Source: an uncultured Lachnospiraceae bacterium (lineage in GTDB: Bacteria > Bacillota > Clostridia > Lachnospirales > Lachnospiraceae). From it: a DNA stretch of 64,000 bases. A program made the position numbers and the translations under genes. The notes below the pieces were generated by a model. It searched no databases, had not been told where the DNA came from, and saw only the letters and a program-made list of their open reading frames with translations. Where the stretch lies: NCBI GenBank assembly GCA_902760415.1, contig CACWGK010000003.1, positions 217 through 64,216 of the forward strand, given 5' to 3'. Position 1 is the first letter of the stretch. Each line of letters opens with the position of its first letter. Positions 13,073 to 64,000 of the stretch are shown one piece after another.

Positions 13073-13325
13073 ATTGACAGATAACAAAGTGTTTGCTATT
13101 TTAAAATAGCAATTGTTATTATTTGAACAAATATTCATATATTTACAAACAAGGGAGTAGCTAGCAGAAAGATATTTTCTGTTCGTATAATCGCCATCTC
13201 GATTGTTGGAGAGTATTCCTCGGACAGTTCGGTTTTATGAATAATTAGCGAGACTTGCTTGTAGCTTACATGATTATTCCTACGGGAATAGTGATGTGGC
13301 TACAAGTGGGTCTCGCTTTTTCTTT
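13073..13325 (+). ncRNA. Candidate independent small transcript or orphan leader ending in a very long hairpin terminator
   Basis: A TTGACA box at 13073 follows the upstream stop codon. About 170 nt of non-coding sequence leads to the 13247-13325 terminator. The downstream ABC operon has its own promoter at 13369-13397. I do not recognise any known riboswitch motif here. Confidence 0.3.
13247..13325 (+). terminator. Extra-long hairpin terminator (about 33 bp stem, UACG tetraloop, T-run)
   Basis: 13247-13280 pairs with 13285-13317 around the loop TACG. Several pairs are G-U, so the stem is only complete in the + strand RNA. TTTTTCTTT follows. Confidence 0.75.
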
Positions 13326-13368
13326 GTGCTAAGGTTGTAGCTACGAAACGTCTAGATGAAAAAAGTTA

Positions 13369-13397
13369 TTGACTTCTAACCCGTATAGTGATATAAA
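13369..13397 (+). promoter_or_regulatory. Sigma-A-type promoter of the ABC transporter operon
   Basis: TTGACT (13369-13374), a 17-nt spacer ending in TGa, then TATAAA (13392-13397): near-consensus -35 and an extended -10. Confidence 0.5.
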
Positions 13398-13449
13398 TGC
13401 TTACGTGAATATATGAATGAATGTTCATATATTAAAAGGAGGAAGAGAT

Positions 13450-14166
13450 ATGTCAGAAGATGAAAGAAAGTTTCTGGAGATAGTAAATCTTAAGAAGGGC
13501 TTTGGTTCTGGAGAATCTAGACAGGAAGTCCTTAGAGGTATGGAGTTTACCGTAGCAAAAGGAGAGTTTTGTGTACTCCTTGGCCCTTCTGGATCCGGTA
13601 AATCAACATTACTCAATATAATAGGTGGTATCGATAATCCTGACTCAGGTTATATATCCATAAATGGTGATAAGCTGGAGGATATGGGAGAGAAGGGACT
13701 TACACAGTATCGTCGTAAGCATTTGGGATATGTGTTCCAGATGTATAACCTAATACCAAATCTTAATGTTAAGGAGAATATCGAGGTTGGTGCTTACCTT
13801 TCTGATAAGGCCCTTGATATAGATGAACTTCTTAATACACTTGGTCTATATAAGCACCGTCATAAGTTACCAAATCAGCTTTCTGGTGGACAGCAGCAGC
13901 GTGTATCTATTGGTAGAGCTATAGTGAAGAATCCAGATATTCTCTTATGTGATGAACCAACTGGAGCGCTAGATTACAACACTTCAAAGGAAATCCTTAA
14001 GCTTATCGAAGATGTAAATCAGAAGTATGGAAATACAATCATTATGGTTACACATAACGAAGCTATCAAGAATATGGCGGATCATGTTATTAAGCTTCGT
14101 GATGGAGTGGTTCGTCATAATAACATCAATGAGAATAAGGTATCAGCTGTAGATCTCGACTGGTAA
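13450..14166 (+). CDS. ABC transporter ATP-binding protein (MacB/LolD-type)
   Basis: Walker A GPSGSGKST, signature LSGGQQQRV and Walker B ILLCDEPT. RBS AAAGGAGGAAGAG precedes ATG 13450; the track ORF starts at 13417. Confidence 0.9.
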   Translation: MSEDERKFLEIVNLKKGFGSGESRQEVLRGMEFTVAKGEFCVLLGPSGSGKSTLLNIIGGIDNPDSGYISINGDKLEDMGEKGLTQYRRKHLGYVFQMYNLIPNLNVKENIEVGAYLSDKALDIDELLNTLGLYKHRHKLPNQLSGGQQQRVSIGRAIVKNPDILLCDEPTGALDYNTSKEILKLIEDVNQKYGNTIIMVTHNEAIKNMADHVIKLRDGVVRHNNINENKVSAVDLDW

Positions 14167-14223: not shown

Positions 14224-16992
14224 ATGAGAAAGATTACGAGCCCACTTAAGAAAAGGGTTCCAAGAGAACTCGTTGGAGAGTGGCGTAAATATGTTGTTAT
14301 TGCACTTTTCCTGATTCTCATGATCGGGTTTATATCAGGAATGTATGTTGCCAACAACAGTATGCTTACTTCTGCTGATAAGAAAAAGACAGAATATAAT
14401 CTTGAGGATGGCTGTTTTGAAACTGCAGAAAAAGCGAGCAATGAGATGATCAAGGCTCTTGAAAAGGGCGAGAAAGCTGATGTTAAGCAGTATTATCTGG
14501 ACAAGGGATATGAAGAGGCAGATAAGGAAGTCAAGAAAGCAATTGATGAGAAAATCCCTGGAGAGATAGAAAAAGCTGTTAAGGATGGAATAGAGAAAGA
14601 AGTTCGTGCTCAGGCAACTGAGGGAGTTGAAGCTCAGATAGCTCAGTATTCTAATATGGGTGCTAAGGTATCGGATTCTGAGAAAGAGAAGATGATACAG
14701 GATATTGTTGATGAGAATCTTCAGGCTGCACTTGATGAATACTACGATGATGCGTATCAGACAGCATACGATAAGTTCATGGATGAGGAATATGAGGATA
14801 CCCTGGAGGATGCCAAGAAGGAAGCGTATGAAGAAGTCGAAGATACGGTAGAGGAGGAATATGAGAAAGCGGCAGATAAGTATGATCTGGATAATCCAGA
14901 TTATGAGGCTGTTCCGATAAAGATATATGAAAACTTCTACAAGGATTCCGGTGAAGATAGAGATCTCGATGGAGAAAAGGACGGTAATATTCGTGTATAT
15001 AAGGACAGAGATGATGTAGATCTTTACAGCATTCATGAGGGTAAGATGCCATCTTCTGCAGACGAGATAGCAATCGACAGAATGCATGCTGATAACGTAA
15101 AGGTTAAGATTGGCGATACTATAAGAGTGGGCGGTCAGGACTTTAAGGTCACTGCACTTGTTGCTCTAGTTAACTATAGTACACTTTATGAGAAGCCAAC
15201 GGATTCAATGTTCGATGCAATATACTTCGATGTTGCTATGGTGACTGATGAGGGCTTTGACAGAATAAAGAATAATATTCATTATAACTACGCTTGGACC
15301 TATAATGTTAAGCCTGTTGATGAGGTAGAAGAGAAAGCTTTATCTGAAAATGTTATGGCTGCGCTTATATCTCAGTCTGTAGTAAATGGCGAGGATGATG
15401 AACCTCTAGAGATAGAGAACTTCCTTCCAAATTATTCAAATAATGCGATTCATTTCGCGACAGATGATATGGGTGGTGATAAGGCGATGGCTGGAATCCT
15501 CCTATATATACTAGTGGCTGTGCTTGCATTTATCTTTGCTATAACGATAAGTAACACGATTACAAAAGAGTCTTCGGTTATTGGAACCCTTCGAGCATCG
15601 GGATATACAAAGGGTGAGCTAATCGTTCACTATATGACAATGCCTGTTCTTGTAACCTTGATAGCAGCGATAATTGGAAATATCCTGGGATATACAGTTT
15701 TCAAAAATGTAGTAATTGGAATGTATTATAATTCATACAGTCTTCCGACTTATGAAACTTATTGGACGTCAGATGCATTTATCAAGACAACTATTGTTCC
15801 AGTGATCATCATGTTTGTGATCAACCTGACAGTAATCGTTAGAATGATGCGCTTCTCGCCACTTAAGTTCCTGAGACATGATCTTAAGATAAAGAAGAGA
15901 CGTAAGGCGGTCAGACTTCCTAAGTGGAAGTTCCTTTCAAGATTTAGAGCGCGTATCTTGCTTCAGAATATACCTAACTATATAGTGCTTGTTCTGGGTA
16001 TATCATTTGTAATGCTGATGCTTTCTATGGCAGTTGGCTTCCCGGATTCGCTGGATGTGTATAAGTCAAATGTTACTGATATGATGTTTGCAAAGTATCA
16101 GACTATTCTTACCTCAACAGAGGATGAGGATGAAAATCCTATAGAGACTACGACGAAGTCTGCTGAGAAGTTCGCAATGAATGGACTTCAGTATGTTTAT
16201 AAGGATCATAAGGAATCGGTATCGGTATATGGAGTAGAAGATAAGAGTAAGTATATTGATATTCCAGATTCGCTTATGGAAAATGAGGTTTATATATCTA
16301 CTACATTTGCTGAGAAATACGGCATCGAAGTAGGTGATACATTTAAACTGGATGCCAGATACGAAAATGATGTCTACACCATGAAGGTTGCTGGAATCTA
16401 TGATTATTCAGGCGCACTTACTGTCTTTATGCCAATTGATAATTATAGAGAAATGTTTGACGAGGATGAAGATTTCTTCACAGGCTTTATGGCAAATGAA
16501 GAGATTGAAGGAATCGATGATGAGTATATAGCAACCACTATAACGGAAGATGATGTCCTGAAGATATCGAGACAGCTGGATCATTCCATGGGTTCATATA
16601 TGAAGTATTTCCAGGTGGTATGTATCATACTATCTGCGGTACTTATCTACCTGCTTACTAAGATAATCATAGAGAAGAATGAAAATGCTATCTCTATGGT
16701 AAAGATTCTAGGATATGAGAATAAAGAAATCAGCGGATTATATATGACGTCCACAACCATCGTGGTAATATTTGCTTGTATAGTTGGTATAGTACTCGCA
16801 TACTTTGGAATGGGTGAAATCTTCAAGATATATCTTATGAGTATGGAAGGATGGTTCCACTATGTTGTGACACCGCTTGGATTTGTGAAGATGTTTGTCT
16901 TCGTATTTGCAGCATATCTTATCGTAATGATTATAGATTATCGCCGTATCAAGAAGATACCGATGGACGAAGCGTTAAAACATGTAGATTAA
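14224..16992 (+). CDS. ABC transporter permease with two FtsX domains and large extracytoplasmic domains
   Basis: Two blocks of FtsX-type TM helices, each preceded by a large soluble domain. The first soluble domain carries an about 200-aa highly charged D/E/K-rich segment. GAGG RBS lies 9 nt before ATG 14224; the track start is GTG 14209. Confidence 0.85.
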   Translation: MRKITSPLKKRVPRELVGEWRKYVVIALFLILMIGFISGMYVANNSMLTSADKKKTEYNLEDGCFETAEKASNEMIKALEKGEKADVKQYYLDKGYEEADKEVKKAIDEKIPGEIEKAVKDGIEKEVRAQATEGVEAQIAQYSNMGAKVSDSEKEKMIQDIVDENLQAALDEYYDDAYQTAYDKFMDEEYEDTLEDAKKEAYEEVEDTVEEEYEKAADKYDLDNPDYEAVPIKIYENFYKDSGEDRDLDGEKDGNIRVYKDRDDVDLYSIHEGKMPSSADEIAIDRMHADNVKVKIGDTIRVGGQDFKVTALVALVNYSTLYEKPTDSMFDAIYFDVAMVTDEGFDRIKNNIHYNYAWTYNVKPVDEVEEKALSENVMAALISQSVVNGEDDEPLEIENFLPNYSNNAIHFATDDMGGDKAMAGILLYILVAVLAFIFAITISNTITKESSVIGTLRASGYTKGELIVHYMTMPVLVTLIAAIIGNILGYTVFKNVVIGMYYNSYSLPTYETYWTSDAFIKTTIVPVIIMFVINLTVIVRMMRFSPLKFLRHDLKIKKRRKAVRLPKWKFLSRFRARILLQNIPNYIVLVLGISFVMLMLSMAVGFPDSLDVYKSNVTDMMFAKYQTILTSTEDEDENPIETTTKSAEKFAMNGLQYVYKDHKESVSVYGVEDKSKYIDIPDSLMENEVYISTTFAEKYGIEVGDTFKLDARYENDVYTMKVAGIYDYSGALTVFMPIDNYREMFDEDEDFFTGFMANEEIEGIDDEYIATTITEDDVLKISRQLDHSMGSYMKYFQVVCIILSAVLIYLLTKIIIEKNENAISMVKILGYENKEISGLYMTSTTIVVIFACIVGIVLAYFGMGEIFKIYLMSMEGWFHYVVTPLGFVKMFVFVFAAYLIVMIIDYRRIKKIPMDEALKHVD

Positions 16993-17075
16993 AAAATGAG
17001 TCACTTCTTTGCTCCGACGTAACAGCTGACTCAAAAATGAGTCAGCAGTTACGTCGAAGCAAGAGGTGACTCATT
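16993..17075. repeat. Palindromic repeat element, inverted-dimer copy A
   Basis: AAAATGAGTCAC...CTGACTCAAAAATGAGTCAGCAGTTACGTCG...GGTGACTCATT. It shares TGAGTCA/TGACTCA ends and the TTACGTC-GACGTAA core with copies at 30163, 40075, 57525 and 60722. It fills the gap between convergent stop codons. Confidence 0.9.
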
Positions 17076-17078
17076 CGT

Positions 17079-18140
17079 TTATTTAACGAGTGAATCGATG
17101 ATGGAGGTTATGCTGGTTATGGAGTCTGCAAGCTCACTAGTCTGCATAGCCTCTATATATTTATCTCTGTTTGAATATACTTCTCTTATACCAGTTAGTA
17201 GTGTTTCGTTACTAACTGCCTCTTCTTCGATTACGTAACTGTAACCGCTTTTCTCAAAGGACTGAGCATTGAGAATCTGATCTCCGCGGCTTGCGGCCTT
17301 TGATAATGGAATCAGAAGATTTGGTTTTCTTATAGCAAGTAGTTCACAGATTGCATTTGCACCAGCGCGTGATATAACTACATCAGCTAGGGCAAACATG
17401 TCTGGGAGCTGTTCTTTTATAAACTCATACTGAACGTAACCTTTTTTATCTTTGATATCAGGGTTCAACTTACCTTTTCCGGTAAGATGAATGACATTGA
17501 ACTCCTTCAGTAATTCGTCAAGACATCCCCATATTGCTTTATTTATAGCAACACTTCCTGTGCTTCCGCCAACTACGAGTAGAGTTGGCTTATCATCTGT
17601 GAATCCACAGAACTCTCGGGCTTTTTCTTTGTCGCCGTTAAAAAGCTCCTGTCTGATAGGTGTACCAGTTACTGTTGCACGGTCGCTGAAGAGCTCTTTG
17701 GTCTCTGGAAAATTACAGCAGATTTTTGTAGCCTTTGGAAGAGCTATCTTGTTGGCAAGTCCTGGAGTCATATCTGATTCGTGGATAACGACAGGAATGT
17801 GCAGATGTGCTGCCATCAGTACAACAGGGACAGTGACAAATCCTCCCTTTGAGAAGACTACATCAGGTTTTATCTTCTTCAGTATTCTCTTCGCATCACC
17901 AAAGCCCTTGTTGACTCTGAAAGGATCTGTGAAGTTCTTAAGATCGAAGTAGCGTCTTAGCTTTCCTGAAGATATTCCGTAGTAAGGAATACCAATCTCT
18001 TCGATAAGTTTTTTCTCGATACCATTATATGTTCCAATATAGCTGATCTCGTATCCTAATTCCTTAAGACGAGGAATCATTGCGATATTTGGAGTTACAT
18101 GTCCGGCTGTACCACCGCCGGTAAGTATAATCTTCTTCAT
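17079..18140 (-). CDS. murG: UDP-N-acetylglucosamine--N-acetylmuramyl-(pentapeptide) pyrophosphoryl-undecaprenol GlcNAc transferase
   Basis: N-terminus MKKIILTGGGTAGHVTPNIAM and the C-terminal region ISRAGANAICELLA are typical of MurG. It is the only - strand gene. Confidence 0.9.
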   Translation of the reverse strand: MKKIILTGGGTAGHVTPNIAMIPRLKELGYEISYIGTYNGIEKKLIEEIGIPYYGISSGKLRRYFDLKNFTDPFRVNKGFGDAKRILKKIKPDVVFSKGGFVTVPVVLMAAHLHIPVVIHESDMTPGLANKIALPKATKICCNFPETKELFSDRATVTGTPIRQELFNGDKEKAREFCGFTDDKPTLLVVGGSTGSVAINKAIWGCLDELLKEFNVIHLTGKGKLNPDIKDKKGYVQYEFIKEQLPDMFALADVVISRAGANAICELLAIRKPNLLIPLSKAASRGDQILNAQSFEKSGYSYVIEEEAVSNETLLTGIREVYSNRDKYIEAMQTSELADSITSITSIIDSLVK

Positions 18141-53756: not shown

Positions 53757-55802
53757 TTGATAAATGTATTAGAATTATTTGGAGGAATCGGCCTCTTCCT
53801 TTTCGGAATGAATCTTATGGGTTCGTCACTTAAGAAGCTGGCTGGTTCTGGACTAGAGAAGATACTCGCGACGCTCACAACGAGTAAGCGTAAAGGAGTC
53901 GGAGCCATAAAAGGCTGGGGACTCGGACTTGGCGTTACCGGAATTATTCAGAGTTCTGCCGCTACGACTATTATGCTGATAGGTTTTGTTAATGCAGGAA
54001 TTATGACCCTTGCTCAGGCAATTCCTGTTGTATATGGTTCGAATGTAGGTAGTACCGTTACAGCTCAGATCTTAAGACTGGGTGATCTTGGTTCGGGAAA
54101 TCTTGTACTTAAGCTGCTCAAGCCATCGTCTTTTGCTCCGATGCTTGTGGCAGTTGGTACATTTACATATCTTTTTACTAGAAAGCAAAAACTAAGGGAT
54201 ATTTGTGGTATCCTGGTTGGTCTTGGAACACTTTTCTATGGAATGACTATGATGGAGGAAGTCTTTGCTCCTCTTAAAGAGTCTGAAGCATTCCAGAACT
54301 TTTTTACATCTTTTAGCAATCCAATAATTGGTATACTTACTGGACTTATTCTTACTGCAATCATTCAAAGCTCCAGTGCTTCAGTTGGTATACTTCAGGC
54401 ACTTTCAGCAACTGGAAGTATCACTTATGGTATTGCGATTCCACTCATCATTGGTCAGAATATTGGTAAATGTATGACTATCCTTATTGGTAGTATTGGC
54501 GCTAACAAGAAGGCTAAGCGTGTTGCACTTAGTTATCTTCTTTTTAACATTATCGGTGCCATCGTCATTTCACTGATCATCTATGCACTGTACTATACGA
54601 TAGGACTTCCTTTCTTCGATAAGGTAGTAAATCGTGGTAATATAGCAAATATTCATCTTGGATTTAACCTTATAATCAGTGTGGTTCTGCTTCCTTTCTC
54701 TAAGCAGATGTCTAATCTCACTGGTAAGCTTCTTAGGGATTCTGATGAGGTTTATGGTGATGAGGAGCTGAGACATCTTGATGATATGCTTCTTAAGACG
54801 CCTGGTATCGCGCTGATGCAGTGTAAGAACCTTATGAAGGTTATGGCTGAGAAGATAGAAGAAAATTATGACCTCGCTATAGGTCTCTTCCAGAATTATG
54901 ATAAGGCTGTATTTAATACTCTCTTAGAAAATGAGAACTTTATAGATAGATGTGAGACGGCGCTATCTTCATATATTGTAAAGATTGAGAGAAAGCGTCT
55001 GACTATAGATAATCAAAGTATGCTGATCGCTATGCTGAATACAATAGGCGATTATGAGCGTATCGGTGACTATTCGATGAAGATTGCCTATACGGCTGAA
55101 GAGTGTCACGATGAGAAGATAACATTTTCAGCTAAAGGTAAGAGAGAGCTGGATATCATCTCTGAGGCTGTGCATAATATCCTGAATATGACATTTGATG
55201 CGGCAGATAATGAGGATATGAATGAGGCTATAAGGATTCAGCCTCTTGCTAAGACTGTCAGCGATATGAAGAGACTTCTGGAGTCTCATCATATAGAGCG
55301 TCTGCAGGATGGTGACTGCGGCGTTAGTGGTGGTACAAAGCTTTATGATCTTGCAAATAGCTTCCAGAAGATTGCAAATCATGCTAAGAGTATATCTCGA
55401 AATATCATCACAAGACTTACAAGAGATGTGAATCTGGATGCAAAGCACGGAAAGCTGCTGGATAAGAGCAGTGAAGAGTATCTATCTCTTGAAAGCTACT
55501 ATCGTACTAAGTATATAGATCCTATGCTAAATGGTGACATAGCCGGAACTTCTGCTATAGATGATGGTGATACAGAAGCTGAATCTTCTGATGTAAGCTA
55601 CACGACTTCAGATTCAAAGAAGGATTCTAAAGCAGCTAAGAAAGAAGGAAGGGACAGCAAGAAGGAAGCTGGAAAGAAGGCTAAGGACAGTAAGAAGGAG
55701 GCCGGAAAGAAGGCTAAGGAAGAAAAGAAAGAAGCAAAGGACAGCAAGAAGGAAGCTGGAAAGAAAGCTAAGGACGGCAAGAAGGATAAGAAAGATAGCT
55801 AA
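53757..55802 (+). CDS. Na/Pi cotransporter family protein with PhoU-like domains and Lys-rich repeat tail
   Basis: N-terminus LELFGGIGLFLFGMNLMGSSLKKLAG and the second repeat TAIIQSSSASVGILQAL are typical of NptA-family proteins. The cytoplasmic half has PhoU-like helices (IGDYERIGDYS, ANHAKSISRNI). TTG start. Confidence 0.85.
   Translation: MINVLELFGGIGLFLFGMNLMGSSLKKLAGSGLEKILATLTTSKRKGVGAIKGWGLGLGVTGIIQSSAATTIMLIGFVNAGIMTLAQAIPVVYGSNVGSTVTAQILRLGDLGSGNLVLKLLKPSSFAPMLVAVGTFTYLFTRKQKLRDICGILVGLGTLFYGMTMMEEVFAPLKESEAFQNFFTSFSNPIIGILTGLILTAIIQSSSASVGILQALSATGSITYGIAIPLIIGQNIGKCMTILIGSIGANKKAKRVALSYLLFNIIGAIVISLIIYALYYTIGLPFFDKVVNRGNIANIHLGFNLIISVVLLPFSKQMSNLTGKLLRDSDEVYGDEELRHLDDMLLKTPGIALMQCKNLMKVMAEKIEENYDLAIGLFQNYDKAVFNTLLENENFIDRCETALSSYIVKIERKRLTIDNQSMLIAMLNTIGDYERIGDYSMKIAYTAEECHDEKITFSAKGKRELDIISEAVHNILNMTFDAADNEDMNEAIRIQPLAKTVSDMKRLLESHHIERLQDGDCGVSGGTKLYDLANSFQKIANHAKSISRNIITRLTRDVNLDAKHGKLLDKSSEEYLSLESYYRTKYIDPMLNGDIAGTSAIDDGDTEAESSDVSYTTSDSKKDSKAAKKEGRDSKKEAGKKAKDSKKEAGKKAKEEKKEAKDSKKEAGKKAKDGKKDKKDS
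55653..55799 (+). repeat. Coding 33-nt tandem repeat (DSKKEAGKKAK units)
   Basis: GACAGCAAGAAGGAAGCTGGAAAGAAGGCTAAG at 55653 and 55686, then again at 55740 after a 21-nt spacer, with partial units flanking. Confidence 0.9.
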
Positions 55803-55822: not shown

Positions 55823-56071
55823 ATGGGTGAGACTAGACCTGCAGTTATATCTATAATAGTTGAGAAGAGTGAGTCTGTAGAAGCACTAAATGCACTTCTT
55901 CATGAATATGCTGAATATATAGTTGGACGTATGGGTATTCCTTATCGTAAGAAGGGAATAAGTATGATAAGTATAGCTCTTGATGCGGAGCAGGATGTTA
56001 TAAATACGCTTGCGGGAAAGCTTGGCAGAATCGAGGGAGTTACTGCTAAGGCTGTATATTCAAATCACTAG
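55823..56071 (+). CDS. TM1266-family iron-only hydrogenase system regulator (small ACT-like protein)
   Basis: 82 aa. AVISIIVEKSESVEALNALLHEYAEYIVGRMGIPYRKKGISMISIALDAEQDVINTLAGKLGRIEGVTAKAVY matches my recollection of this family, which is encoded next to hydE/F/G. GGGAGG RBS lies 9 nt upstream. Confidence 0.7.
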   Translation: MGETRPAVISIIVEKSESVEALNALLHEYAEYIVGRMGIPYRKKGISMISIALDAEQDVINTLAGKLGRIEGVTAKAVYSNH

Positions 56072-56277
56072 ACTTATGATTTTATAAATTAAAAATTGTT
56101 AGATTATATTACCTTAAATTAGTGATGTCTTTCTGAAAGATATCATTTATAATATGAATGCAAATTAAATCTTTTTTAGCCAACCTGACATCGAAACCGG
56201 AGCGGGGACGTTCTGCTTGAGATAGAAGCACGTGGAAATCAGTTTAAAGCCATTCGTGGTGATATTAAGTTTTTTTC

Positions 56278-56309
56278 GCGCTCTTTCGTTTGTCGGAGGA
56301 GCGCTTTTT
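56278..56309 (+). terminator. Intrinsic terminator inside the hydF leader (candidate attenuator)
   Basis: GCGCTCTTTCG-tttgt-CGGAGGAGCGC (11 bp including 2 G-U pairs) followed by TTTTT. It ends 18 nt before the hydF ATG. Confidence 0.65.
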
Positions 56310-56327
56310 ATGTAGAGAGGAATCATT

Positions 56328-57530
56328 ATGAGTTTAAATGATACGCCATCGGGAGAACGTTTAAGAATAAGTTTTTTTGGAAAAAGAAATGCTGGTAAGT
56401 CCAGCCTTGTAAATGCGGTAACAAATCAGCAGCTGGCTGTGGTTTCAGATACTTTGGGAACTACTACGGATCCAGTGCAGAAGGCTATGGAACTTCTGCC
56501 TTTGGGACCTGTTCTTATAACAGATACTCCTGGATTTGATGATTCTGGCAAGCTTGGTGAACTCCGGGTTAAGCGTACTAAGCAGATACTGAACAAGACT
56601 GATATAGCAATTCTGGTTACGGATGCGACAAGACAGTCGGATGTGACAGAACTAGAGCTGCTTAGAATATTTGAAGAGAAGTCGATTCCATTTATCATAG
56701 CAAAGAATAAGTCGGATCTACTTGGAGAAGTGCCTGTTAACGAAGATGGCGCTGGAAATGTTATATATGTCAGTGCAACTGAAAAGACGGGGATCGAAGA
56801 GCTGAAGGAGAGAATTGGACATCTGATTCCTTCTGATGGAAATGGACTGAAACTTGTTGGCGATATTATAGAGCCGGGGCAGCTGGTGGTTCTCGTGATT
56901 CCTATAGATAAGGCGGCACCAAAGGGAAGACTTATCTTGCCACAGCAGCAGGCGATTAGAGATATACTCGATGCTGGTGCATTTGCAATCACGACTAGAG
57001 ATACAGAACTTGCTGATTTACTTGAGAAACTCAGGGCCTCTGGACAAAATCCAGACCTGGTAATCACTGATAGTCAGGCATTTGAAAAGGTTAATAAGAT
57101 TGTTCCAAAGGGTATCGAGCTTACTTCATTTTCGATACTGATGGCGCGTTATAAGGGATTCCTTGATACAGCTGTGAAGGGTGCCAGAGCGATTGACGAG
57201 CTAAGCGATGGTGACAAGATTCTGATAAGTGAAGGCTGCACGCACCATAGACAGTGTGGAGATATCGGAACTGTGAAGCTTCCGAAATGGCTATCGGAAC
57301 GAACAGGAAAGAATCTTGTGATCGAGACCACGTCGGGAGCAGATTTCCCAGACAGTCTTGAAGAATACAAGTTAGTAGTACATTGTGGCGGCTGTATGTT
57401 AAGTGCGAGAGAAATGGTATATCGCATGAAGTGTGCTGAGGATATGAACGTTCCATTCACCAACTACGGAATAGCCATAGCCTACATGAAGGGAATCCTC
57501 GATAGAACCATCGCCCCAATATATAAATGA
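56328..57530 (+). CDS. hydF: [FeFe]-hydrogenase H-cluster maturation GTPase HydF
   Basis: G1 GKRNAGKSS, G3 DTPG, G4 NKSD, and the C-terminal cluster motif EGCTHHRQCGDIG ... VHCGGC. It is colinear with Thermotoga HydF as I recall it. Confidence 0.9.
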   Translation: MSLNDTPSGERLRISFFGKRNAGKSSLVNAVTNQQLAVVSDTLGTTTDPVQKAMELLPLGPVLITDTPGFDDSGKLGELRVKRTKQILNKTDIAILVTDATRQSDVTELELLRIFEEKSIPFIIAKNKSDLLGEVPVNEDGAGNVIYVSATEKTGIEELKERIGHLIPSDGNGLKLVGDIIEPGQLVVLVIPIDKAAPKGRLILPQQQAIRDILDAGAFAITTRDTELADLLEKLRASGQNPDLVITDSQAFEKVNKIVPKGIELTSFSILMARYKGFLDTAVKGARAIDELSDGDKILISEGCTHHRQCGDIGTVKLPKWLSERTGKNLVIETTSGADFPDSLEEYKLVVHCGGCMLSAREMVYRMKCAEDMNVPFTNYGIAIAYMKGILDRTIAPIYK

Positions 57531-57608
57531 GTCACCTATCACGTCCGACGTAAATGGTGACTCAAAAATGAGTCAGCATTTACGTCGGACGTGGAAAGTG
57601 ACTCATTT
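57525..57608. repeat. Palindromic repeat element, inverted-dimer copy C (overlaps hydF stop codon)
   Basis: AAATGAGTCACCTATCACGTCCGACGTAAATGGTGACTCAAAAATGAGTCAGCATTTACGTCGGACGTGGAAAGTGACTCATTT. The hydF TGA (57528-57530) lies within the element terminus. Confidence 0.9.
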
Positions 57609-57634
57609 GGTTTGAGATTTTTTGGAGAATTAGC

Positions 57635-58723
57635 ATGAGTAATGAGAAGTTTTCATTAATAGATAAGTTGGCGGAGCAGCATTCTTTATCCCGAGCTGAG
57701 TGGACGACTCTTCTCGGAGGTGACGAGGCTTCGCTCTTTGAGAGGGCTGGGAAACTTCAGCCTGAAGAAGAGGAAGTGCTTCAGTACGCGGCTGCAAAGG
57801 CTAGGAAGGTAGCGACTTCAGTATATGGCAGTGATGTATATATCAGAGGAATTGTCGAGTTCAGCAATACCTGCAATAAGAACTGCTACTACTGCGGCCT
57901 TCGTGCCGGTAACTCGAAGCTTCAGAGATATCGCCTCACCGTGGAAGATATTCTCGAATGCTGCGAGGATGGCTATAAGTATGGATTTAGAACCTTCGTC
58001 TTGCAAAGTGGAGAAGATCCTTACTATACAACAGAAATGATATGCGACCTCGTAAAGCGTCTTAAGCAGGACTATCCAGATTGTGCTGTGACTCTTTCCC
58101 TTGGGGAGAAGTCATACGAAGAGTATAAGGCCTATCGTGAGGCGGGAGCTGATAGATATTTGCTAAGACATGAGACTGCAAATGAGGAGCATTACGGAAA
58201 ACTTCATCCAGAGAATATGTCCTGGAAGAACCGAATGAGATGTCTAAGAGATCTTAAATCTCTTGGATACCAGACAGGATGCGGAGTGATGATTGGTTCA
58301 CCGAATCAGACGGTCGAATGCCTTGTAGACGACATGATGTTTATGCAGGAGTTTGAGCCGGAAATGATAGGACTCGGTCCATTTCTTCCACATAGTGATA
58401 CACCATTTAAGGAAGAACCTAAAGGTTCATATGAGATGACGCTGTTCCTGATCAGTCTATGTCGTCTGATGCTGCCACACGCACTTATTCCAGCTACGAC
58501 AGCACTTGGAACCATAAAGCCTGACGGACGTGAACAGGGAATCCTTGCTGGCGCAAATGTCATAATGCCAAATCTTTCTCCTGTTCAGGTGAGGGACAAA
58601 TATATGCTTTACGACAACAAGATATGCACAGGAGATACGTCATCGGAGTGCCGTGATTGTATCGAGCGTCGCATGGAGCTGATTGGATATAATGTTGTAA
58701 TCTCTAGAGGAGATTACAAGTAA
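57635..58723 (+). CDS. hydE: [FeFe]-hydrogenase H-cluster radical SAM maturase HydE
   Basis: Radical SAM motif [37 protein letters not shown] and [10 protein letters not shown] closely match HydE rather than BioB or HydG. Confidence 0.9.
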
Positions 58724-58740
58724 TATATAAAGGAAATGAT

Positions 58741-59490
58741 ATGATTAAGTTTGCAATATATGGAAAAGGCGGAATAGGAAAGTCTACACTGTCGTCGAAT
58801 CTTTCTGCGGCCCTCGCAAAGAGAGGACTCACAGTTATGCAGATTGGCTGTGATCCAAAGGCTGATTCAACGTCACTTCTATGTCCGAAGGAGAAGATAA
58901 CAACTGTTCTTGATCTTGTTAGAAGTGGTAAGCCATTTACCCTGGAGGATATGGTCAAGGAAAGTACAGCAGGCGTTTTATGTGTTGAGGCAGGAGGCCC
59001 GGTTCCTGGACTTGGTTGTGCAGGCCGAGGCATTATAAATGCTTTGGAATCGCTGGAGCAGAAGGGCGCTTATGATGTGTATAAGCCTGATGTCGTCATT
59101 TACGATGTACTCGGAGACGTGGTCTGCGGAGGCTTCACTATGCCTATGCGTAAGGGCTACGCGGATAAGGTATACATAGTAACATCGGGTGAGAAGATGG
59201 CGATATACGCGGCTGCCAATATAGCTATGGCGGTTGAGAACTTCAAGAAGCGTGACTACGCAAAACTTGGTGGAATCATACTGAACTGCCGTGGAGTGGA
59301 AAATGAGATAGACAATGCTGAGACTCTTGCAAAGGATTTCAGTACAAGTGTTCTGCAGGTTATTCCAAGAAGCCCACTGTTTGAAAAGGCCGAGGCTGAA
59401 GGAAAGACTGTAATCGAACTCTTCCCGGAAAGCGATGTTGCGGAGAAGCTGCTTTCGCTTGCAGATATAGTTATCGAGCAGGGTGAATAA
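58741..59490 (+). CDS. NifH-like ATPase / nitrogenase-like reductase component 2 (copy 1)
   Basis: P-loop [10 protein letters not shown]. Both [4Fe-4S] ligand contexts are conserved (GLGCAGRG and [12 protein letters not shown]). It is only 249 aa and starts 18 nt after hydE. Confidence 0.85.
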
Positions 59491-59547
59491 GACAGATAGA
59501 ATTAGGATAGATAGATTTAAGTTATATAGAATGTAAGGAAGAAGAGT

Positions 59548-60975
59548 ATGCTGGAAGCGTTACATACAAAAGAAAATCGAATACCAGAACCAGTTCTTCT
59601 TAAAGATATAGACTTTGAGACCCCATTTTACGAAGGACTTCAGTATAATCCACCAGCGCGTGGTGTGTGGAATATAGTCCACACAGGTATGCTGATTCCA
59701 GAGGCACATCAGGTATATGTCTGTGCACAGGGGTGTCTCAGGGGTGTTATACTCACGGCGGCTGAGATGAATCTGATGGATAGGATGTCCTGGGTATCAC
59801 TTCGTGAGAAGGATATGTGGAATGGAGAAATGGAGTCCCGCGTGGTTGAAGGCGTTGCTCACATAGTGAGTCAAATGGAGAACCGCCCAAGATGTATACT
59901 TGTTTACCTTAGCTGTATGCATATGTTTGAGGGCTGTGACTTCAAGGTGATTGCTGATGAGCTGTCCGAGAGATTTCCTGGTACAACATTTGTTGACTGC
60001 TATATGACGCCAACTATGAGAAAAAGTATCTCGCCGGACGCTATGATGAAGGCTAGTCTCTATGATCCGATAATTCCTCTACCTAAGAAGGAGAATCTGG
60101 TGGGACTCGTTGGCTGCGATAGAGAGACAGACAGAACCTCAGATATCTTCGAGATTGCAAAGCTGGCAGGACGCGACATATGGGAGATTAATTCCTGCGA
60201 GACTTATGATCAGTACCTAGAACTTGGTAGTGCTGCGCGTCTTATATCATATCTTCCGGTCGCAAATGTGGGAGTCAGAAAGCTGGCTGGTCGAATCGGT
60301 GCTGAGTGGAAATATCTACCTATAAGCTACGACTTCGAGGAATGCAAGGAAAATGTATGGCAGCTGGCAGAGTTCCTGACAGGGACTGAACTAAGAGGAC
60401 AGCAAGCAGATAAAGAGAAGAATGTTATAGAACATATTGAGGAATATATCTCTGAAAAGAGTAAACTGGCGGACGAAGCATTCAAAAAAGCTCATGCGAA
60501 GATTAAGGATACACCGATAGTTATAGATTATTCGGCAACCCCTCGTCCTCTCGGACTTGCGCTGCTGCTTACAAAGTATGGATTTAATGTAACTACCATT
60601 TATACAGATATATTCCAGAAGGAAGAACGTGCAGCGTACGAAGAACTTCTGGAGCTGAGGCCAGAAATGAAGATATATTCCACCATGGACCCAGCCATGC
60701 GATTTGCTGACAACGAATATGAAAATGAGTCAGCATTTACGTCGGACGTAAAAAGTGACTCATTTTTAAAGGGGGATAAGATACTAGCTATCGGTCAGAA
60801 GGCAGCATACTTTGTGCATACACCGTATTTCGTAAATATTGCTGATGGCGGTGGAATGTATGGAATCGACGGACTTAGACGAATGGCAGAGGAATTGCTG
60901 GATGCCTATAAGAAAACAAAGGATACTAAGAAGTTGATAAGTCATAAGGGTATCGGTTGCGCCAGCTGTTTGTAG
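59548..60975 (+). CDS. Nitrogenase component-1-type (NifD/K/E/N, BchN/B-like) oxidoreductase subunit
   Basis: 475 aa. The Cys motifs VCAQGC and LSCMHMFEGCDF sit where component-1 proteins carry cluster ligands. The LVGLVGCDRE...DIFEIAKLAG pattern is typical of the family. Confidence 0.7.
   Translation: MLEALHTKENRIPEPVLLKDIDFETPFYEGLQYNPPARGVWNIVHTGMLIPEAHQVYVCAQGCLRGVILTAAEMNLMDRMSWVSLREKDMWNGEMESRVVEGVAHIVSQMENRPRCILVYLSCMHMFEGCDFKVIADELSERFPGTTFVDCYMTPTMRKSISPDAMMKASLYDPIIPLPKKENLVGLVGCDRETDRTSDIFEIAKLAGRDIWEINSCETYDQYLELGSAARLISYLPVANVGVRKLAGRIGAEWKYLPISYDFEECKENVWQLAEFLTGTELRGQQADKEKNVIEHIEEYISEKSKLADEAFKKAHAKIKDTPIVIDYSATPRPLGLALLLTKYGFNVTTIYTDIFQKEERAAYEELLELRPEMKIYSTMDPAMRFADNEYENESAFTSDVKSDSFLKGDKILAIGQKAAYFVHTPYFVNIADGGGMYGIDGLRRMAEELLDAYKKTKDTKKLISHKGIGCASCL
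60721..60768. repeat. Palindromic repeat element, monomer copy E, in-frame inside the Nif-like gene
   Basis: GAAAATGAGTCAGCATTTACGTCGGACGTAAAAAGTGACTCATTTTTA is translated as [16 protein letters not shown]. Confidence 0.9.
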
Positions 60976-61011
60976 AATAAAAGATAGAAAAAAAGATAGA
61001 AAGAATCAGAA

Positions 61012-62283
61012 ATGAATCAAACTGCGAGAAGAATATCAATATATGCTGCGGACACATCGGGATTTTGCTCTGCTCTATATGAGTATGGCGGAATGACCGT
61101 AATTCATGATGCATCCGGCTGCAACTCGACATATACAACTCACGACGAACCTCGCTGGTACGATAAGGACAGTATGATGTACATATCAGGGTTCACTGAG
61201 AAAGACGCAATCATGGGAAATGACGAGCGCTTTGTCCATGATCTTGTACTGGCGGCAAAGGAATTAAATCCGAAGTTTATCGCTATATGTGCGTCACCTC
61301 TTCCTGCTATGACCGGCGTCGATCTTGAAGCAATAGCCTACGAGGTTGAAGCAGAGACAGGCATACCAAGCTTTAATGTGAGAACAAATGGAATGCAGAG
61401 CTATATAACAGGCGCGGGAAATGCATTTGTGGAGCTCGCTAAGCATTTTACAAAACCTGTAAATAAGGTAAGACCACTAAGGACTGGTTCAAATGTCGGA
61501 CTCCCTGGAGCGGCAGAAGTGCTGGTAAATGTACTCGGCCTCACACCACTGGATTTCCCTCTTGAAGGTACAGTGTGGGCTCTTAGAAAATGGCTCGCAG
61601 AACATGAACTGATGGTAAATGCAACCGTCGGCATGGATACGTCCTTAGAACAGATTGAAGTTCTTGCCGAAGCTGATGTAAATCTGGTTGTTAGTTCAGT
61701 CGGCATGCCGCTGGCGGAGTATCTATATAATGAGTATGGAATCCCGTACGTAGTGGGCGCTCCATTTGGAGATATTAAGTCCACATCGATTTTAGGATTT
61801 AATGTAAAGGTGGCAGCGACTGATGGCGAGAATGCACTCAGTTGTAAAATGCTGAATCCTTGCGGCAGAAAGATAGCAATCATTGGTGAGAGCGTAACAT
61901 CAAGATCCCTCGCAAATGCAATCTATCAGGAGTTCAACATCTCTGCAAGAGTTCTGGAAAGCGTGGGGGATGGATTTATGCAGGCCCTAAATAAGCTAGT
62001 GGATCAGAAGCTCTGGGCAGGACAATTCGATAATGATATTAGCGAACAGCTGGATGATGTGTCCTGCGACGATGAGGATATACTGGAGCAGGAAATCCAG
62101 AAGTCCGATATAATAATCGGCGACCCGCTCTTTGAACCGATATGCTACGGAAAGACATTTATAAGACTTCCTCATATGGCATTTTCGGGAAGATGTTTCA
62201 CTAAGGAAGAAGTGCAACTCATTGGCACGCCACTTAGGGAGACATCCGTTGGAAAAGCTTTAGCAAAGACTCTGGGAAAGTAA
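61012..62283 (+). CDS. Nitrogenase component-1-type oxidoreductase subunit (partner)
   Basis: 423 aa. VIHDASGCNS (the H-x3-G-C motif) and AICASPLPAMTGVD (the C...G-x-D motif) are characteristic of the Oxidored_nitro family. Confidence 0.75.
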   Translation: MNQTARRISIYAADTSGFCSALYEYGGMTVIHDASGCNSTYTTHDEPRWYDKDSMMYISGFTEKDAIMGNDERFVHDLVLAAKELNPKFIAICASPLPAMTGVDLEAIAYEVEAETGIPSFNVRTNGMQSYITGAGNAFVELAKHFTKPVNKVRPLRTGSNVGLPGAAEVLVNVLGLTPLDFPLEGTVWALRKWLAEHELMVNATVGMDTSLEQIEVLAEADVNLVVSSVGMPLAEYLYNEYGIPYVVGAPFGDIKSTSILGFNVKVAATDGENALSCKMLNPCGRKIAIIGESVTSRSLANAIYQEFNISARVLESVGDGFMQALNKLVDQKLWAGQFDNDISEQLDDVSCDDEDILEQEIQKSDIIIGDPLFEPICYGKTFIRLPHMAFSGRCFTKEEVQLIGTPLRETSVGKALAKTLGK

Positions 62284-62315
62284 CATTTTACTAAGATAAT
62301 AGAGGTATAAGATAA

Positions 62316-63071
62316 ATGATTAAAATTGCGATATATGGCAAAGGTGGAATCGGAAAGTCTACAGTTACATCAAATCTTTCGGCCGCACTTGCTTCGCTTG
62401 GTAAAAAGGTAATACAGATTGGCTGTGATCCTAAGGCGGATTCTACTGCAAATCTTCTGTCGGGAAGCCCTGTAACTCCAGTTATGAATTATATGCGTGA
62501 TACAGGAGAGGAACCAACAAGCCTTGATGAGATAGCAAAGGAAGGCTTTGGCGGAGTAGTCTGCATAGAGACAGGCGGCCCAACTCCAGGTCTTGGCTGT
62601 GCAGGTAGAGGTATCATTACCACATTTTCCCTCCTGGAAGAGTTAGAGCTCTACAAGAAGTACCAGCCGGATGCTGTTCTATATGATGTTCTAGGTGACG
62701 TAGTATGTGGTGGTTTTGCGGCACCAATCAGAGAAGGCTATGCTGATAAGGTTCTCATAGTTACGTCTGGAGAAAAAATGGCGCTTTATGCGGCCAACAA
62801 CATAAATACGGCAGTTAAGAACTTTGAAGACAGAAGCTACGCAAAAGTTCGCGGTATAGTAATGAACAGGCGTGCTGTTGAAGGAGAAGAGGAGAAGGTT
62901 CGCGCCTTCGCAGAGTCTTCAGGGCTTGATATAGTAGCTGATATCCCACGTACAAATGATATTATTCATTACGAGGATATGGGCAAGACAGTAATCGAAG
63001 GTGATCCTAGCCTTGAAGTAAGTAAGAGATTCCTTGCGCTGGCTCAGCTCCTTATCGATGAAGATGAATAA
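62316..63071 (+). CDS. NifH-like ATPase / nitrogenase-like reductase component 2 (copy 2)
   Basis: [18 protein letters not shown] and [12 protein letters not shown] are all conserved. It is 251 aa and a paralogue of 58741-59490. Confidence 0.85.
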
Positions 63072-63117
63072 ACAAACTAAAGAATAAACAAGCTAAAGAA
63101 TGGATATATTTTAGATA

Positions 63118-64000
63118 ATGACAAATGCATTTTATAAAACAACTAAAGAATTGGCAGAACTAGGACTGTCAGGTCTTCCGGGGGAACTTAAGTCAAGCGA
63201 CCATTTGATCTATAGTTCACCAGCAACCCTTTACTTCAATTCGCCTGGTGCTAAGGGGTTTGGAGTTAAAAGGGCCGGACTTGCCGTGCCTGAATCAGTC
63301 ATGCTTCTGGTATCACCGGGATGCTGCGGTAGAAATACATCACTCTTTAGAACAGCTCCAGAATATAAGGATAAGTTCTTCTTTCAACTTCTAGATGATA
63401 CTGATATTGTAACAGGCCGACACCTTACGAAGATTCCACAGGCAGCTGAGGAATTACTTCAAACACTTGAAATAAGTGGCAAGGCAAGACCTTCAGCAAT
63501 AATGATATGCATCACCTGCGTAGATGCACTTCTCGGAACAGATATGGAGCGAGTATGCCGTAAGGTTACAGAGAAGACAGGCGTTCCTGCAGTTGCATGT
63601 TATATGTATGCACTCACTAGAGAGAAGAGGCTTCCACCTATGGCGGCAGTTAGAACGAGTGTATATTCTCTGCTGGAAAAAGTTGAGAAGAGGAACTCTG
63701 CCGATATAAATATCCTGGGATACTTTACTCCACTATTTGATTCGTCGGAAATCTATCCGCTTATGAAATCAATCGGTGTTAAGAATATTCGCGAACTGTC
63801 ACGTGCGAAGACATTTGAAGAATATAAGGAAATGTCGAAAGCAAACTTTAGTCTTGTGCTAAATCCAGAGGCACGTGCGGCGGCGCAGGATATGCAGGAT
63901 AGACTGGGAATACCATTTATCGAGCTCCTTCGGCTCTATAGAATAGATAAGATTCATAATCAATATAAGTCATTGGGAGATGCGCTGGGAGCAAATCTTG
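63118..64000 (+). CDS. Nitrogenase component-1-type oxidoreductase subunit (3' end outside window)
   Basis: This gene is not in the ORF track because it has no stop in the window. By manual translation, the frame is open from ATG 63118 to base 64000: MTNAFYKTTKELAELGLSGLPGELK...LLVSPGCCGRNTS...IMICITCVDALLGTD...INILGYFTPL.... The start codon choice is uncertain. Confidence 0.65.
   Translation, partial: MTNAFYKTTKELAELGLSGLPGELKSSDHLIYSSPATLYFNSPGAKGFGVKRAGLAVPESVMLLVSPGCCGRNTSLFRTAPEYKDKFFFQLLDDTDIVTGRHLTKIPQAAEELLQTLEISGKARPSAIMICITCVDALLGTDMERVCRKVTEKTGVPAVACYMYALTREKRLPPMAAVRTSVYSLLEKVEKRNSADINILGYFTPLFDSSEIYPLMKSIGVKNIRELSRAKTFEEYKEMSKANFSLVLNPEARAAAQDMQDRLGIPFIELLRLYRIDKIHNQYKSLGDALGANL

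Follow-up and report, generated by a model that had tools for sequence, protein, structure and literature searches.

Two nitrogenase-like gene sets and hypFCDE in the place of hydG: a conserved hydrogenase-maturase operon of gut bacteria and its possible role in making an iron-carbonyl-cyanide cofactor

What are nitrogenase-like genes doing in an operon for hydrogenase maturation? HydG, to our knowledge, is held to be the universal origin of the H-cluster's CO and CN ligands in [FeFe]-hydrogenases. The question is raised by a stretch of 64,000 nucleotides (the window) from an uncultured Lachnospiraceae bacterium (assembly GCA_902760415.1, contig CACWGK010000003.1, positions 217 to 64,216 of the forward strand), near whose 3' end the maturase genes hydF and hydE run directly into nitrogenase-like (nfl) genes. 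A first-pass annotation of the letters had proposed either an uncharacterised ATP-dependent system tied to radical-SAM/GTPase metallocofactor maturation, or a reductase merely co-regulated with hydrogenase maturation. We find that the window covers about the first two-thirds, from the 5' end, of an operon that is conserved, tightly packed and co-oriented; this operon is a hydG-less counterpart of the ordinary maturase operon, with two nfl gene sets and hypFCDE in the hydG place. We hypothesize, with somewhat less than even confidence, that this operon encodes a HydG-independent pathway to an Fe-CO/CN cofactor, in which the nitrogenase-like sets act as reductive maturases and an [FeFe]-hydrogenase is the likeliest acceptor.

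All genes of the operon in the window lie on the plus strand. The first encodes a TM1266-like small ACT-type protein, a putative regulator (55820/55823-56071; TIGR03959, 110.7 bits against a cut-off of 60.8; PF21699, 107.2 against 27), whose sole relative in the PDB is 2NZC (E 7e-12). A leader of 256 nucleotides separates it from hydF (56328-57530), encoding the GTPase/scaffold of H-cluster maturation, which is followed by hydE (57635-58723), encoding the radical-SAM maturase. Both products clear their equivalog cut-offs (HydF, TIGR03918, 547.9 bits against 325.6, with HydF_dimer and HydF_tetramer domains; HydE, TIGR03956, 548.0 against 254.6), and their translations contain the GTPase and CxH...HCxxC motifs of HydF and the CX3CX2C motif of HydE. 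Then come two sets of genes, each encoding a NifH-like ATPase/[4Fe-4S] reductase (H), an alpha-type component-1-like subunit (X) and a beta-type one (Y): H1 (58741-59490, 249 amino acids), the divergent X1 (59548-60975, 475 amino acids), Y1 (61012-62283, 423 amino acids), H2 (62316-63071, 251 amino acids) and X2 (from 63118), which is cut by the window end at 64000. The H proteins match PF00142 (H1 294 bits, H2 298.5) and the others PF00148 (X1 47.5, Y1 103.5, X2 91.3). The gene order listed by the first-pass annotation therefore stands, every open reading frame (ORF) existing as described and the families being confirmed by curated models. So do its absence of HydG, since no HydG-, HydA- or [NiFe] large-subunit-like ORF or motif occurs in the window, and its absence of a terminator after hydE: the plus strand from 56305 to 64000 has no terminator-like site, the sole one preceding hydF in the leader. 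Its spacing of 18-57 nucleotides needs correction, as the gaps are 17-57 nucleotides from hydE on and 104 nucleotides between hydF and hydE.

Is this arrangement an accident of one genome? We scanned one genome per species with X1 and analysed the best 80 of 425 matching stretches; 55 of these loci are well covered downstream and 54 upstream, and presence counts use these. Past the point where the window ends, the relatives (L001-L004 and the 80 loci) continue with Y2, hypF, hypC, hypD and hypE, so that the missing partner sought downstream of 64000 appears there as a sixth nfl gene, together with hypFCDE. The full order is TM1266-hydF-hydE-H1-X1-Y1-H2-X2-Y2-hypF-hypC-hypD-hypE, and this order of 11-13 genes is found in about 90% of the 55 well-covered species loci. 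Downstream, Y1 is present in 55/55, H2 in 52/55, X2 in 51/55, Y2 in 50/55, and HypF, HypC and HypD in 50/55 each; upstream, TM1266 is present in 47/54, HydE in 37/54 and HydF in 32/54. The adjacency to hydE and hydF thus recurs across genomes of several phyla, and the arrangement as a whole, repeated in nearly all 80 species loci, is far beyond chance. Stop and start codons of neighbouring operon genes frequently overlap in the relatives.

The exact X1 sequence of the window has no database record, and its relatives number in the thousands. The closest named relative, Lachnospiraceae AC2031 (L001), has an X1 79% identical and the same order continuing into the hyp genes, as does a human-gut X1 cluster of Ruminococcus/Hominimerdicola type (45% identical, 4,683 member sequences). 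Hosts of the 80 loci belong to Bacillota, Lentisphaerota, Spirochaetota and Synergistota and are mostly from rumen or gut; they include Lachnospiraceae, Ruminococcus (among them R. albus 8, AR67 and KH2T6), Hominimerdicola, Clostridium and Oscillospiraceae in the Bacillota, and Victivallales/Lentisphaeria, Spirochaetaceae and Synergistaceae elsewhere. A distant locus (L206, Logan SRR10595374 contig, 34% identity to X1) has the permuted order H-X-Y-hypF...hypC-hypD-hypE-H-X-Y and retains both sets. No other neighbour is found in more than 11 of the 80 loci, and the flanks show no conserved gene for transport, tetrapyrroles or sulfur; PARG-like, cupin, 133-residue and approximately 220-residue neighbour genes are lineage-specific. 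The absence of nifB/nifEN, tetrapyrrole and sulfur genes, first noticed in the window, therefore extends to the relatives, none of these being conserved in the 80 loci and nifB and nifEN being found in none of them.

The relation to ordinary maturase operons became visible in a metagenome scan by the leader motif described below, which gave 120 loci. Among these are 21 operons of the nfl type and 22 canonical ones, each of the latter having a HydG-like ORF longer than 400 amino acids (one was tested, at 912.6 bits to TIGR03955). The canonical orders are TM1266-motif-hydF-hydE-hydG and, in other gut bacteria, motif-TM1266-hydE-hydG-hydF. No locus among those examined holds hydG together with any nfl or hyp gene, and no HydG-like ORF was found in the 80 genome loci, in the 21 metagenome nfl-type loci or on the R. 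albus plasmids in PLSDB. At its loci the operon is thus not a canonical hydEFG operon, hydG being absent. It shares with the canonical operon the same TM1266-like first gene, the same leader motif and a hydF-hydE pair that passes equivalog cut-offs, but in the position of hydG there are six nitrogenase-like genes and hypFCDE, and its HydE and HydF fall in separate clades. Of the nfl-linked HydF sequences, 34/38 form one clade without any hydG-linked HydF, and 68/70 nfl-linked HydE sequences do likewise; the window's hydF and hydE belong to these N-type clades. As the hosts span phyla, this indicates that the operon evolves and is spread horizontally as a unit.

The two types of operon also share an element of their leaders. 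What had been listed simply as a leader is a conserved structured RNA without an Rfam family, CCUGA-[CNNC]-GAAA...UUGA-[GNNG]-RAAG (56178-56234, plus strand). In alignment A5 the 4-bp core is paired in 99.4% of cells, with 32 double-change cells, a result reached in 0/500 shuffles, while slid controls pair at no more than 52%. A covariance model (R1) gave 71 matches in 1.39 Mb, all intergenic and all on the operon strand; the gene upstream is TM1266 in 55/70 and the gene downstream is hydF, H1 or hydE. Nearly every locus in L005-L084 and L085-L204 has one copy. Rfam returned nothing at gathering score, and at E<=10 only chance-level matches to PyrR and L10 leaders, which we ascribe to the terminator hairpin. 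This terminator-like hairpin (56278-56310; site called 56278-56304) has an 11-bp stem with 7 GC pairs followed by TTTTT, in the gap between leader RNA and hydF, and by a crude criterion a hairpin of this kind lies 3' of the motif in 50/63 loci. The stem of the motif is pseudo-twofold, both strands reading UGA-NNNN-RAA. We consider the RNA a candidate riboswitch or, alternatively, a site to which the dimeric TM1266-like protein may bind. An antiterminator pairing of CCUGAC with GUCAGG of the terminator was rejected, as the longest runs in the next 150 nucleotides that complement one or the other half of the motif do not exceed those in shuffles (4.86 against 4.80; 5.30 against 5.17).

What kind of nitrogenase-like proteins are these? 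H1 and H2 are members of component 2 of the nitrogenase superfamily, as their PF00142 matches, motifs and bridging Cys indicate. They retain all functional motifs of NifH, with the P-loop and switch regions present in the translations, and the cluster-ligating Cys residues that the first-pass annotation had pointed out in these short proteins are invariant (H1 Cys93/129 in 79 sequences, H2 Cys95/131 in 69); H1 Cys37 and Cys81 are invariant as well. They miss every related curated model: NifH (308 bits, cut-off 394), CfbC (306 and 291, cut-off 402), BchL (193-206, cut-off 345) and BchX (158-192, cut-off 331). Compared with PDB chains, H1 reaches 241 bits with C. pasteurianum NifH and 226 bits with MarH (9fmg_D), and the similarity of H1 and H2 to NifH, CfbC and MarH is about that which these three have among themselves. 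The two HXY sets are each other's closest relatives (H1/H2 54% identity; X1/X2 23%, E 2e-27; Y1/Y2 31%, E 9e-47), which indicates an old duplication of one HXY unit.

Two side observations touch the reductases. A microbial PARG-type gene (PF10021, TIGR02452) lies between hypF and hypC in a number of Lachnospiraceae, namely AC2031 (L001 18212-19027, plus strand), L015, L016 and L017, and at the position of Rumal_0553 in R. albus 7. H1 and H2 retain the Arg of CAGRG, the residue that is ADP-ribosylated in regulated NifH, and control of H1/H2 through de-ADP-ribosylation by the PARG-type protein is conceivable. In Clostridium aromativorans (L045), C. lapidicellarium (L060) and Clostridiaceae BL-3 (P0104), a single protein of about 700 amino acids combines H1 and X1; such a fusion would fix reductase and partner in one complex, as reported for CfbCD.

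X1, Y1, X2 and the X2 and Y2 of relatives belong to component 1 by their PF00148 matches, together with the fold of X1 and the cluster Cys of X1, X2 and Y1. X1 is the most divergent: phmmer found no match to it in the PDB, and its profile reaches MarD and NifE only at E of about 3e-3. Its AlphaFold2 model (mean confidence, pLDDT, 83) has a component-1 fold, alike to Anf, Nif (NifD/K), Vnf, NifE/N, MarD/K and BchB (template-modelling score 0.52-0.60, identity <=16%). With the X2 and Y1 profiles, NifD, NifE and BchB are matched at 1e-14 to 1e-20, NifE being the best curated match for both X2 and Y1; to MarD (9fmg_A) the profile E values are 2.6e-3 for X1, 9e-4 for X2 and 2e-11 for Y1. X2 is 90% identical to that of AC2031, with a mean column identity of 66%. 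Eight Cys of X1 (59, 63, 123, 130, 151, 217, 471 and 474) are invariant in alignment A1 and 91-100% conserved across 82 sequences. The position of NifD Cys154 is occupied by X1 C123 and X2 C136, and X1 C63 and X2 C71/72 lie near that of Cys88, while Y1 Cys19, Cys37 and Cys93 occupy the cluster-ligand positions of NifK/NifN. There are also extra conserved Cys: in X1 C59, C130, C151, C217 and a C-terminal C471xxC474 (GCxSCL), and in X2 C72, C133, C149, C163 and C232. The domain-II Cys shared by the two (X1 C217/X2 C232) is absent from known families. The ligands of the iron-molybdenum cofactor (FeMo-co) and the L-cluster are missing from the X proteins: the Cys275 position is Tyr or Leu in X1 and an invariant Asn in X2, His442 is not conserved, and there is no equivalent of NifE Cys250.

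Judged on these comparisons, X and Y are outside every characterised nitrogenase-like clade, as had been thought possible, since they miss the curated models, match other profiles weakly and, for X1, are equally like all of them in fold; the direct sequence comparison covers Nif, Cfb, Bch and Mar proteins, with Isr judged by context and Group VI by its published description. Nitrogenase proper (Nif, Vnf or Anf) does not fit by NifH score, by the Cys275 and His442 positions or by nifB/nifEN, and we reject nitrogen fixation in view of the ligand positions, the absent nifB/nifEN and the missed curated cut-offs. NifH with NifEN is the nearest parallel in function: a NifH-like ATPase serves an alpha/beta component-1 pair, and a comparable cofactor-maturation role for the present sets is plausible by analogy. 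The differences are the lack of a NifB/L-cluster route, the missing Cys250, the low identity in structural alignments and a radical-SAM partner that is HydE and not NifB. DPOR (BchLNB) and COR (BchXYZ) likewise form two paralogous HXY sets from an ancient duplication, which by analogy suggests two successive ATP-dependent reductions in one pathway, but tetrapyrrole genes are lacking here, the BchL and BchX scores fall far under their cut-offs and BchB reaches at most 51 bits against 490. CfbCD is excluded in that no CfbD model is among the matches of X and Y, the partners X and Y are two distinct proteins and the hosts are gut bacteria. MarBHDK (Group IV-C) and IsrBHDK (Group IV-F) share with the operon a Group-IV-like NifH homologue, and MarD is among the weak profile and fold matches; they differ in that the operon has no NifB-like B subunit, no conserved sulfur genes and no L-cluster Cys, and in hosts and neighbours (Isr being compared by context only). 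Group VI of the Elusimicrobia type has been described as having a NifH sister to group V and many B12/HemN-type radical-SAM neighbours, in Elusimicrobia, Gracilibacteria and Myxococcales (10.1101/765248). Against that description, H1 and H2 are closer to NifH/CfbC (about 306 bits) than to BchL (about 200), and HydE is their only radical-SAM neighbour.

The nearest outgroup of X1 and X2 is a widespread group of single NifH-X-Y sets (L205, Treponema saccharophilum pTS1; L207; L208/L209), at 26-31% identity to X1 (P0192 31%, P0210 30%) and 30% to X2 for pTS1. These resemble the operon most closely in sequence and in their short H-X-Y architecture, but they consist of one set, lack TM1266, hyd and hyp genes, and adjoin FecBCD-type importers (Peripla_BP_2/FecCD/ABC), sometimes with a radical-SAM gene. 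The importers suggest small-molecule metal complexes as substrates, and this outgroup is probably another uncharacterised nitrogenase-like clade that acts on an imported metal chelate.

In L001 and L002 the products of all four hyp genes pass curated equivalog or subfamily cut-offs (HypF 741 bits against 466, HypC 58 against 48, HypD 407 against 193, HypE 424 against 252); the window's own copies would lie beyond 64000. This likens them to the HypFCDE branch of [NiFe]-hydrogenase maturation, from which they differ in that the loci have no hypA, hypB, endopeptidase or [NiFe] large-subunit gene and the cultured carriers no [NiFe]-hydrogenase. In a published screen (Greening et al. 2019, PMC6776011, Table S2), R. 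albus 7, 8, AR67 and KH2T6 are recorded with [FeFe]-hydrogenases of groups A3, B, C2 and C3 but without a [NiFe] enzyme, and Lachnospiraceae G41 and NE2001 with [FeFe]-hydrogenases only. With AC2031, which also lacks a [NiFe]-hydrogenase, these strains indicate that in cultured carriers HypFCDE is without a [NiFe] client. The same table counts as NifH a further NifH-like gene elsewhere in R. albus strains (Rumal_2437, CUS_5275) but not the cluster's H1 and H2 in AC2031, NE2001 and G41, so that NifH-based surveys treat the family inconsistently.

Expression of the operon can be glimpsed in R. albus 7, where Rumal_0542-0556, matched by annotation order, would be its counterpart. In Table S7 of the RNA-sequencing study (PMC6776011), the TM1266-like gene Rumal_0542 stands at about 500 and the 14 downstream genes, Rumal_0543-0556, evenly at about 30-125, and co-culture with an H2 consumer produced no response (fold changes 0.97-1.22). 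By these values expression of Rumal_0543-0556 is low, flat and maturase-like, unlike that of the catabolic hydrogenases of R. albus 7. The even levels, together with the lack of a terminator between hydE and H1, favour the co-transcription that had been thought likely for the window. The roughly tenfold drop from Rumal_0542 to hydF onward would fit partial termination at the leader hairpin, in the interval equivalent to window positions 56071-56328.

How might such an operon work? In the maturation of [NiFe]-hydrogenases, carbamoyl phosphate is the source from which HypF and HypE produce cyanide, and Fe(CN)x(CO) is assembled by HypC-HypD; the origin of the CO in anaerobic Hyp-dependent maturation is a standing problem. 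We propose that HypFCDE would supply an Fe-CN/CO unit in place of HydG, much as it does in that pathway. H1 and H2 would drive low-potential electrons at the cost of ATP into X1Y1 and X2Y2, which would serve as reductive maturases or scaffolds, working on this iron complex, or on its ligands, in two consecutive steps that each need ATP, by analogy with DPOR followed by COR or with NifH/NifEN. HydE and HydF would take over the product, processing and carrying it as they do in canonical maturation, and the final acceptor would likeliest be an [FeFe]-hydrogenase.

Delivery to an [FeFe]-hydrogenase is favoured by the use of the hydG slot, the common regulation, the maturase-like expression, the sister clades that appear to handle metal chelates, and a hydA neighbour in one locus: in a Victivallales metagenome-assembled genome (MAG), a HydA-like gene of 603 amino acids with the L1 and L3 H-cluster motifs (L077 1582-3393, plus strand) immediately precedes hydF-H1-X1... 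in the same orientation. No other of the roughly 80 loci has a hydrogenase structural gene in the cluster; hydABC/HydS genes that lie 4-8 kb off in one Lachnospiraceae subclade, with unrelated genes between, we treat as weak. A role in making an Fe-CO/CN unit is further supported by hypFCDE and both HXY sets being kept together even in the permuted locus, and by the lack of M- or L-cluster machinery, X1 and X2 having no Cys275/His442 ligands and no nifB being near. The first alternative of the first-pass annotation, an uncharacterised ATP-dependent system tied to radical-SAM/GTPase metallocofactor maturation, is thus borne out by the recurrent hyd linkage and the want of a known clade.

Several points weigh against this proposal. 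The replacement of one enzyme, HydG, by ten proteins is not parsimonious, and nitrogenase-like enzymes are not known from any biochemical work to act on Fe-carbonyl-cyanide complexes. At 14/54 upstream-covered loci neither hydE nor hydF is in the operon, and most Lentisphaeria loci have hydE without hydF. The absence of hydG is established for the loci (+/-10 kb) and not for whole genomes, while the HydE and HydF trees are unbootstrapped neighbour-joining trees whose hydG-type sample is biased by the search pattern. The 7-8 near-invariant Cys of X2 (7) and X1 (8), and very long invariant stretches, exceed what an electron-transfer cluster needs, and in this X1 and X2 resemble a catalytic subunit that holds a cofactor. 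Finally, AC2031, the closest named relative, has the full operon and is recorded with no hydrogenase of any class (PMC6776011, Table S2).

This one carrier without a recognised hydrogenase keeps alive the option that X and Y themselves retain the cofactor. X1Y1, X2Y2 or both would then be end users, forming a new two-component metalloenzyme that carries the Fe-CN/CO unit made by HypFCDE with HydE and HydF, which we regard as the main rival, possible although unlikely. One HXY set might act as a scaffold in the manner of NifEN while the other is the catalyst, and H1 and H2 would donate electrons at the expense of ATP; candidate substrates include H+/H2, CO2/CO or another small molecule. Besides the whole operon in AC2031, HypFCDE without a [NiFe] target in any cultured carrier is in keeping with this, as are a self-contained operon that moves across phyla as a unit, the Cys-rich and extremely conserved X1 and X2 with GCxSCL and the shared C217/C232, the likeness of the duplicated sets to NifHDK plus NifEN, the existence in some lineages of a core without hydE and hydF, and the high cost of ten genes for one if only HydG were replaced. 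Such an enzyme would be a fourth kind of iron-carbonyl-cyanide enzyme, nitrogenase-fold and ATP-driven, with an active site built by HypFCDE and HydE/HydF without HydG, and would occur even in bacteria that lack a hydrogenase, a prospect that we hold to be doubtful. An end user sits poorly with the low, flat expression recorded for the presumed R. albus 7 counterpart, with a regulator and leader RNA common to hydFEG operons and the exact hydG slot, and with sister clades that look like small-molecule metal-chelate reductases; moreover, the sole hydrogenase-free genome rests on one published screen with strict thresholds.

Those same sister clades invite another explanation, that the two nitrogenase-like sets reduce an unrelated substrate, such as an imported metal chelate or a tetrapyrrole-like compound, and are only co-regulated or co-inherited with hydrogenase maturation genes. 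In its favour, relatives at <=31% identity have one HXY set next to importers and lack hyd and hyp genes, hydE and hydF are dispensable in the operon, and three loci have TM1266-H1-X1-Y1 only (L073, L083 and L084, from Clostridiales/Lachnospiraceae MAGs). We nevertheless find it improbable, because hypFCDE is kept in 50/55 downstream-covered loci across four phyla and in the permuted L206, genes overlap, HydE and HydF co-diverge with the nfl genes, hydG and nfl/hyp genes are mutually exclusive at the locus, and the flanks are without any conserved transporter, tetrapyrrole or sulfur gene, their most frequent family being present in only 11 loci. The merely co-regulated reductase of the first-pass annotation is accordingly weakened by the hyp retention, the overlaps and the co-divergence, though still conceivable. 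Membership of a characterised system (nitrogenase, CfbCD, DPOR/COR, methylthio-alkane reductase or isethionate reductase) is very improbable: H1 and H2 resemble NifH, CfbC and MarH at the level those share mutually, but every curated cut-off is missed, X and Y reach MarD/K, NifD/K/E/N and BchB by profile only at E 1e-2 to 1e-20 with equal fold likeness to all, Cys275/His442 are not kept, no nifB/marB/isrB-like, tetrapyrrole or sulfur genes are near, and a July 2026 review of nitrogenase-like enzymes lists no such gene context.

Searches on combinations of nitrogenase-like genes with hydE, hydF and hypFCDE, on Nfl names and on TM1266 returned no description of such an operon in the literature, and it is not mentioned in the July 2026 review, the pseudo-nifH paper, the Mar-expansion preprint or the Elusimicrobia paper (10.1101/765248). 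Most nitrogenase-like clades are without known function, and according to the review the hints from gene context are so far confined to sulfur or tetrapyrrole metabolism. The operon joins three problems, namely the source of the H-cluster ligands, the CO of Hyp maturation and the function of nitrogenase-like clades, and its carriers include abundant H2 producers of the rumen and human gut, such as R. albus, Hominimerdicola and Lachnospiraceae. There is a substantial chance that categorically new chemistry lies behind it: either a tyrosine-independent, ATP-driven route to Fe-CO/CN synthons, if our preferred hypothesis of reductive maturases is true, or a nitrogenase-fold enzyme with an Fe-CO/CN cofactor, if X and Y are end users. 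Both can be tested in a cultured organism with an existing transcriptome. The operon also accounts for part of the "pseudo-nifH" signal that inflates estimates of diazotrophs in gut metagenomes, and its leader is a candidate for an RNA that regulates hydrogenase maturation.

Some individual loci deserve mention. The three loci with a single set have carbohydrate genes downstream of it and no second set or hyp genes within 10 kb, and may represent a reduced or split variant. Beside the cluster of L206 are genes for a NifX/NafY-type Nitro_FeMo-Co protein (PF02579, 73 bits) and a CobW-type metallochaperone GTPase (13147-13554 and 16143-17270, both minus strand), which are possible cofactor carriers. 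In a Spirochaetaceae MAG (L058 6915-8195, plus strand), an aspartate ammonia-lyase-like gene (NF008909, 509 bits, one under the cut-off of 510) separates hydF from hydE, recalling the ammonia-lyases that are reported to take part in making the dithiomethylamine bridge of the H-cluster (PMC11736057). In the window itself, a gene for a Na/Pi-cotransporter-PhoU fusion (53757-55802, plus strand), with a long Lys-rich repeat tail at its C-terminus (KKEAGKKAK...), ends 17 nucleotides before the TM1266-like start. AC2031 also has this gene in front of its cluster, so in the window's lineage the PhoU fusion and the TM1266-like gene may share a transcript.

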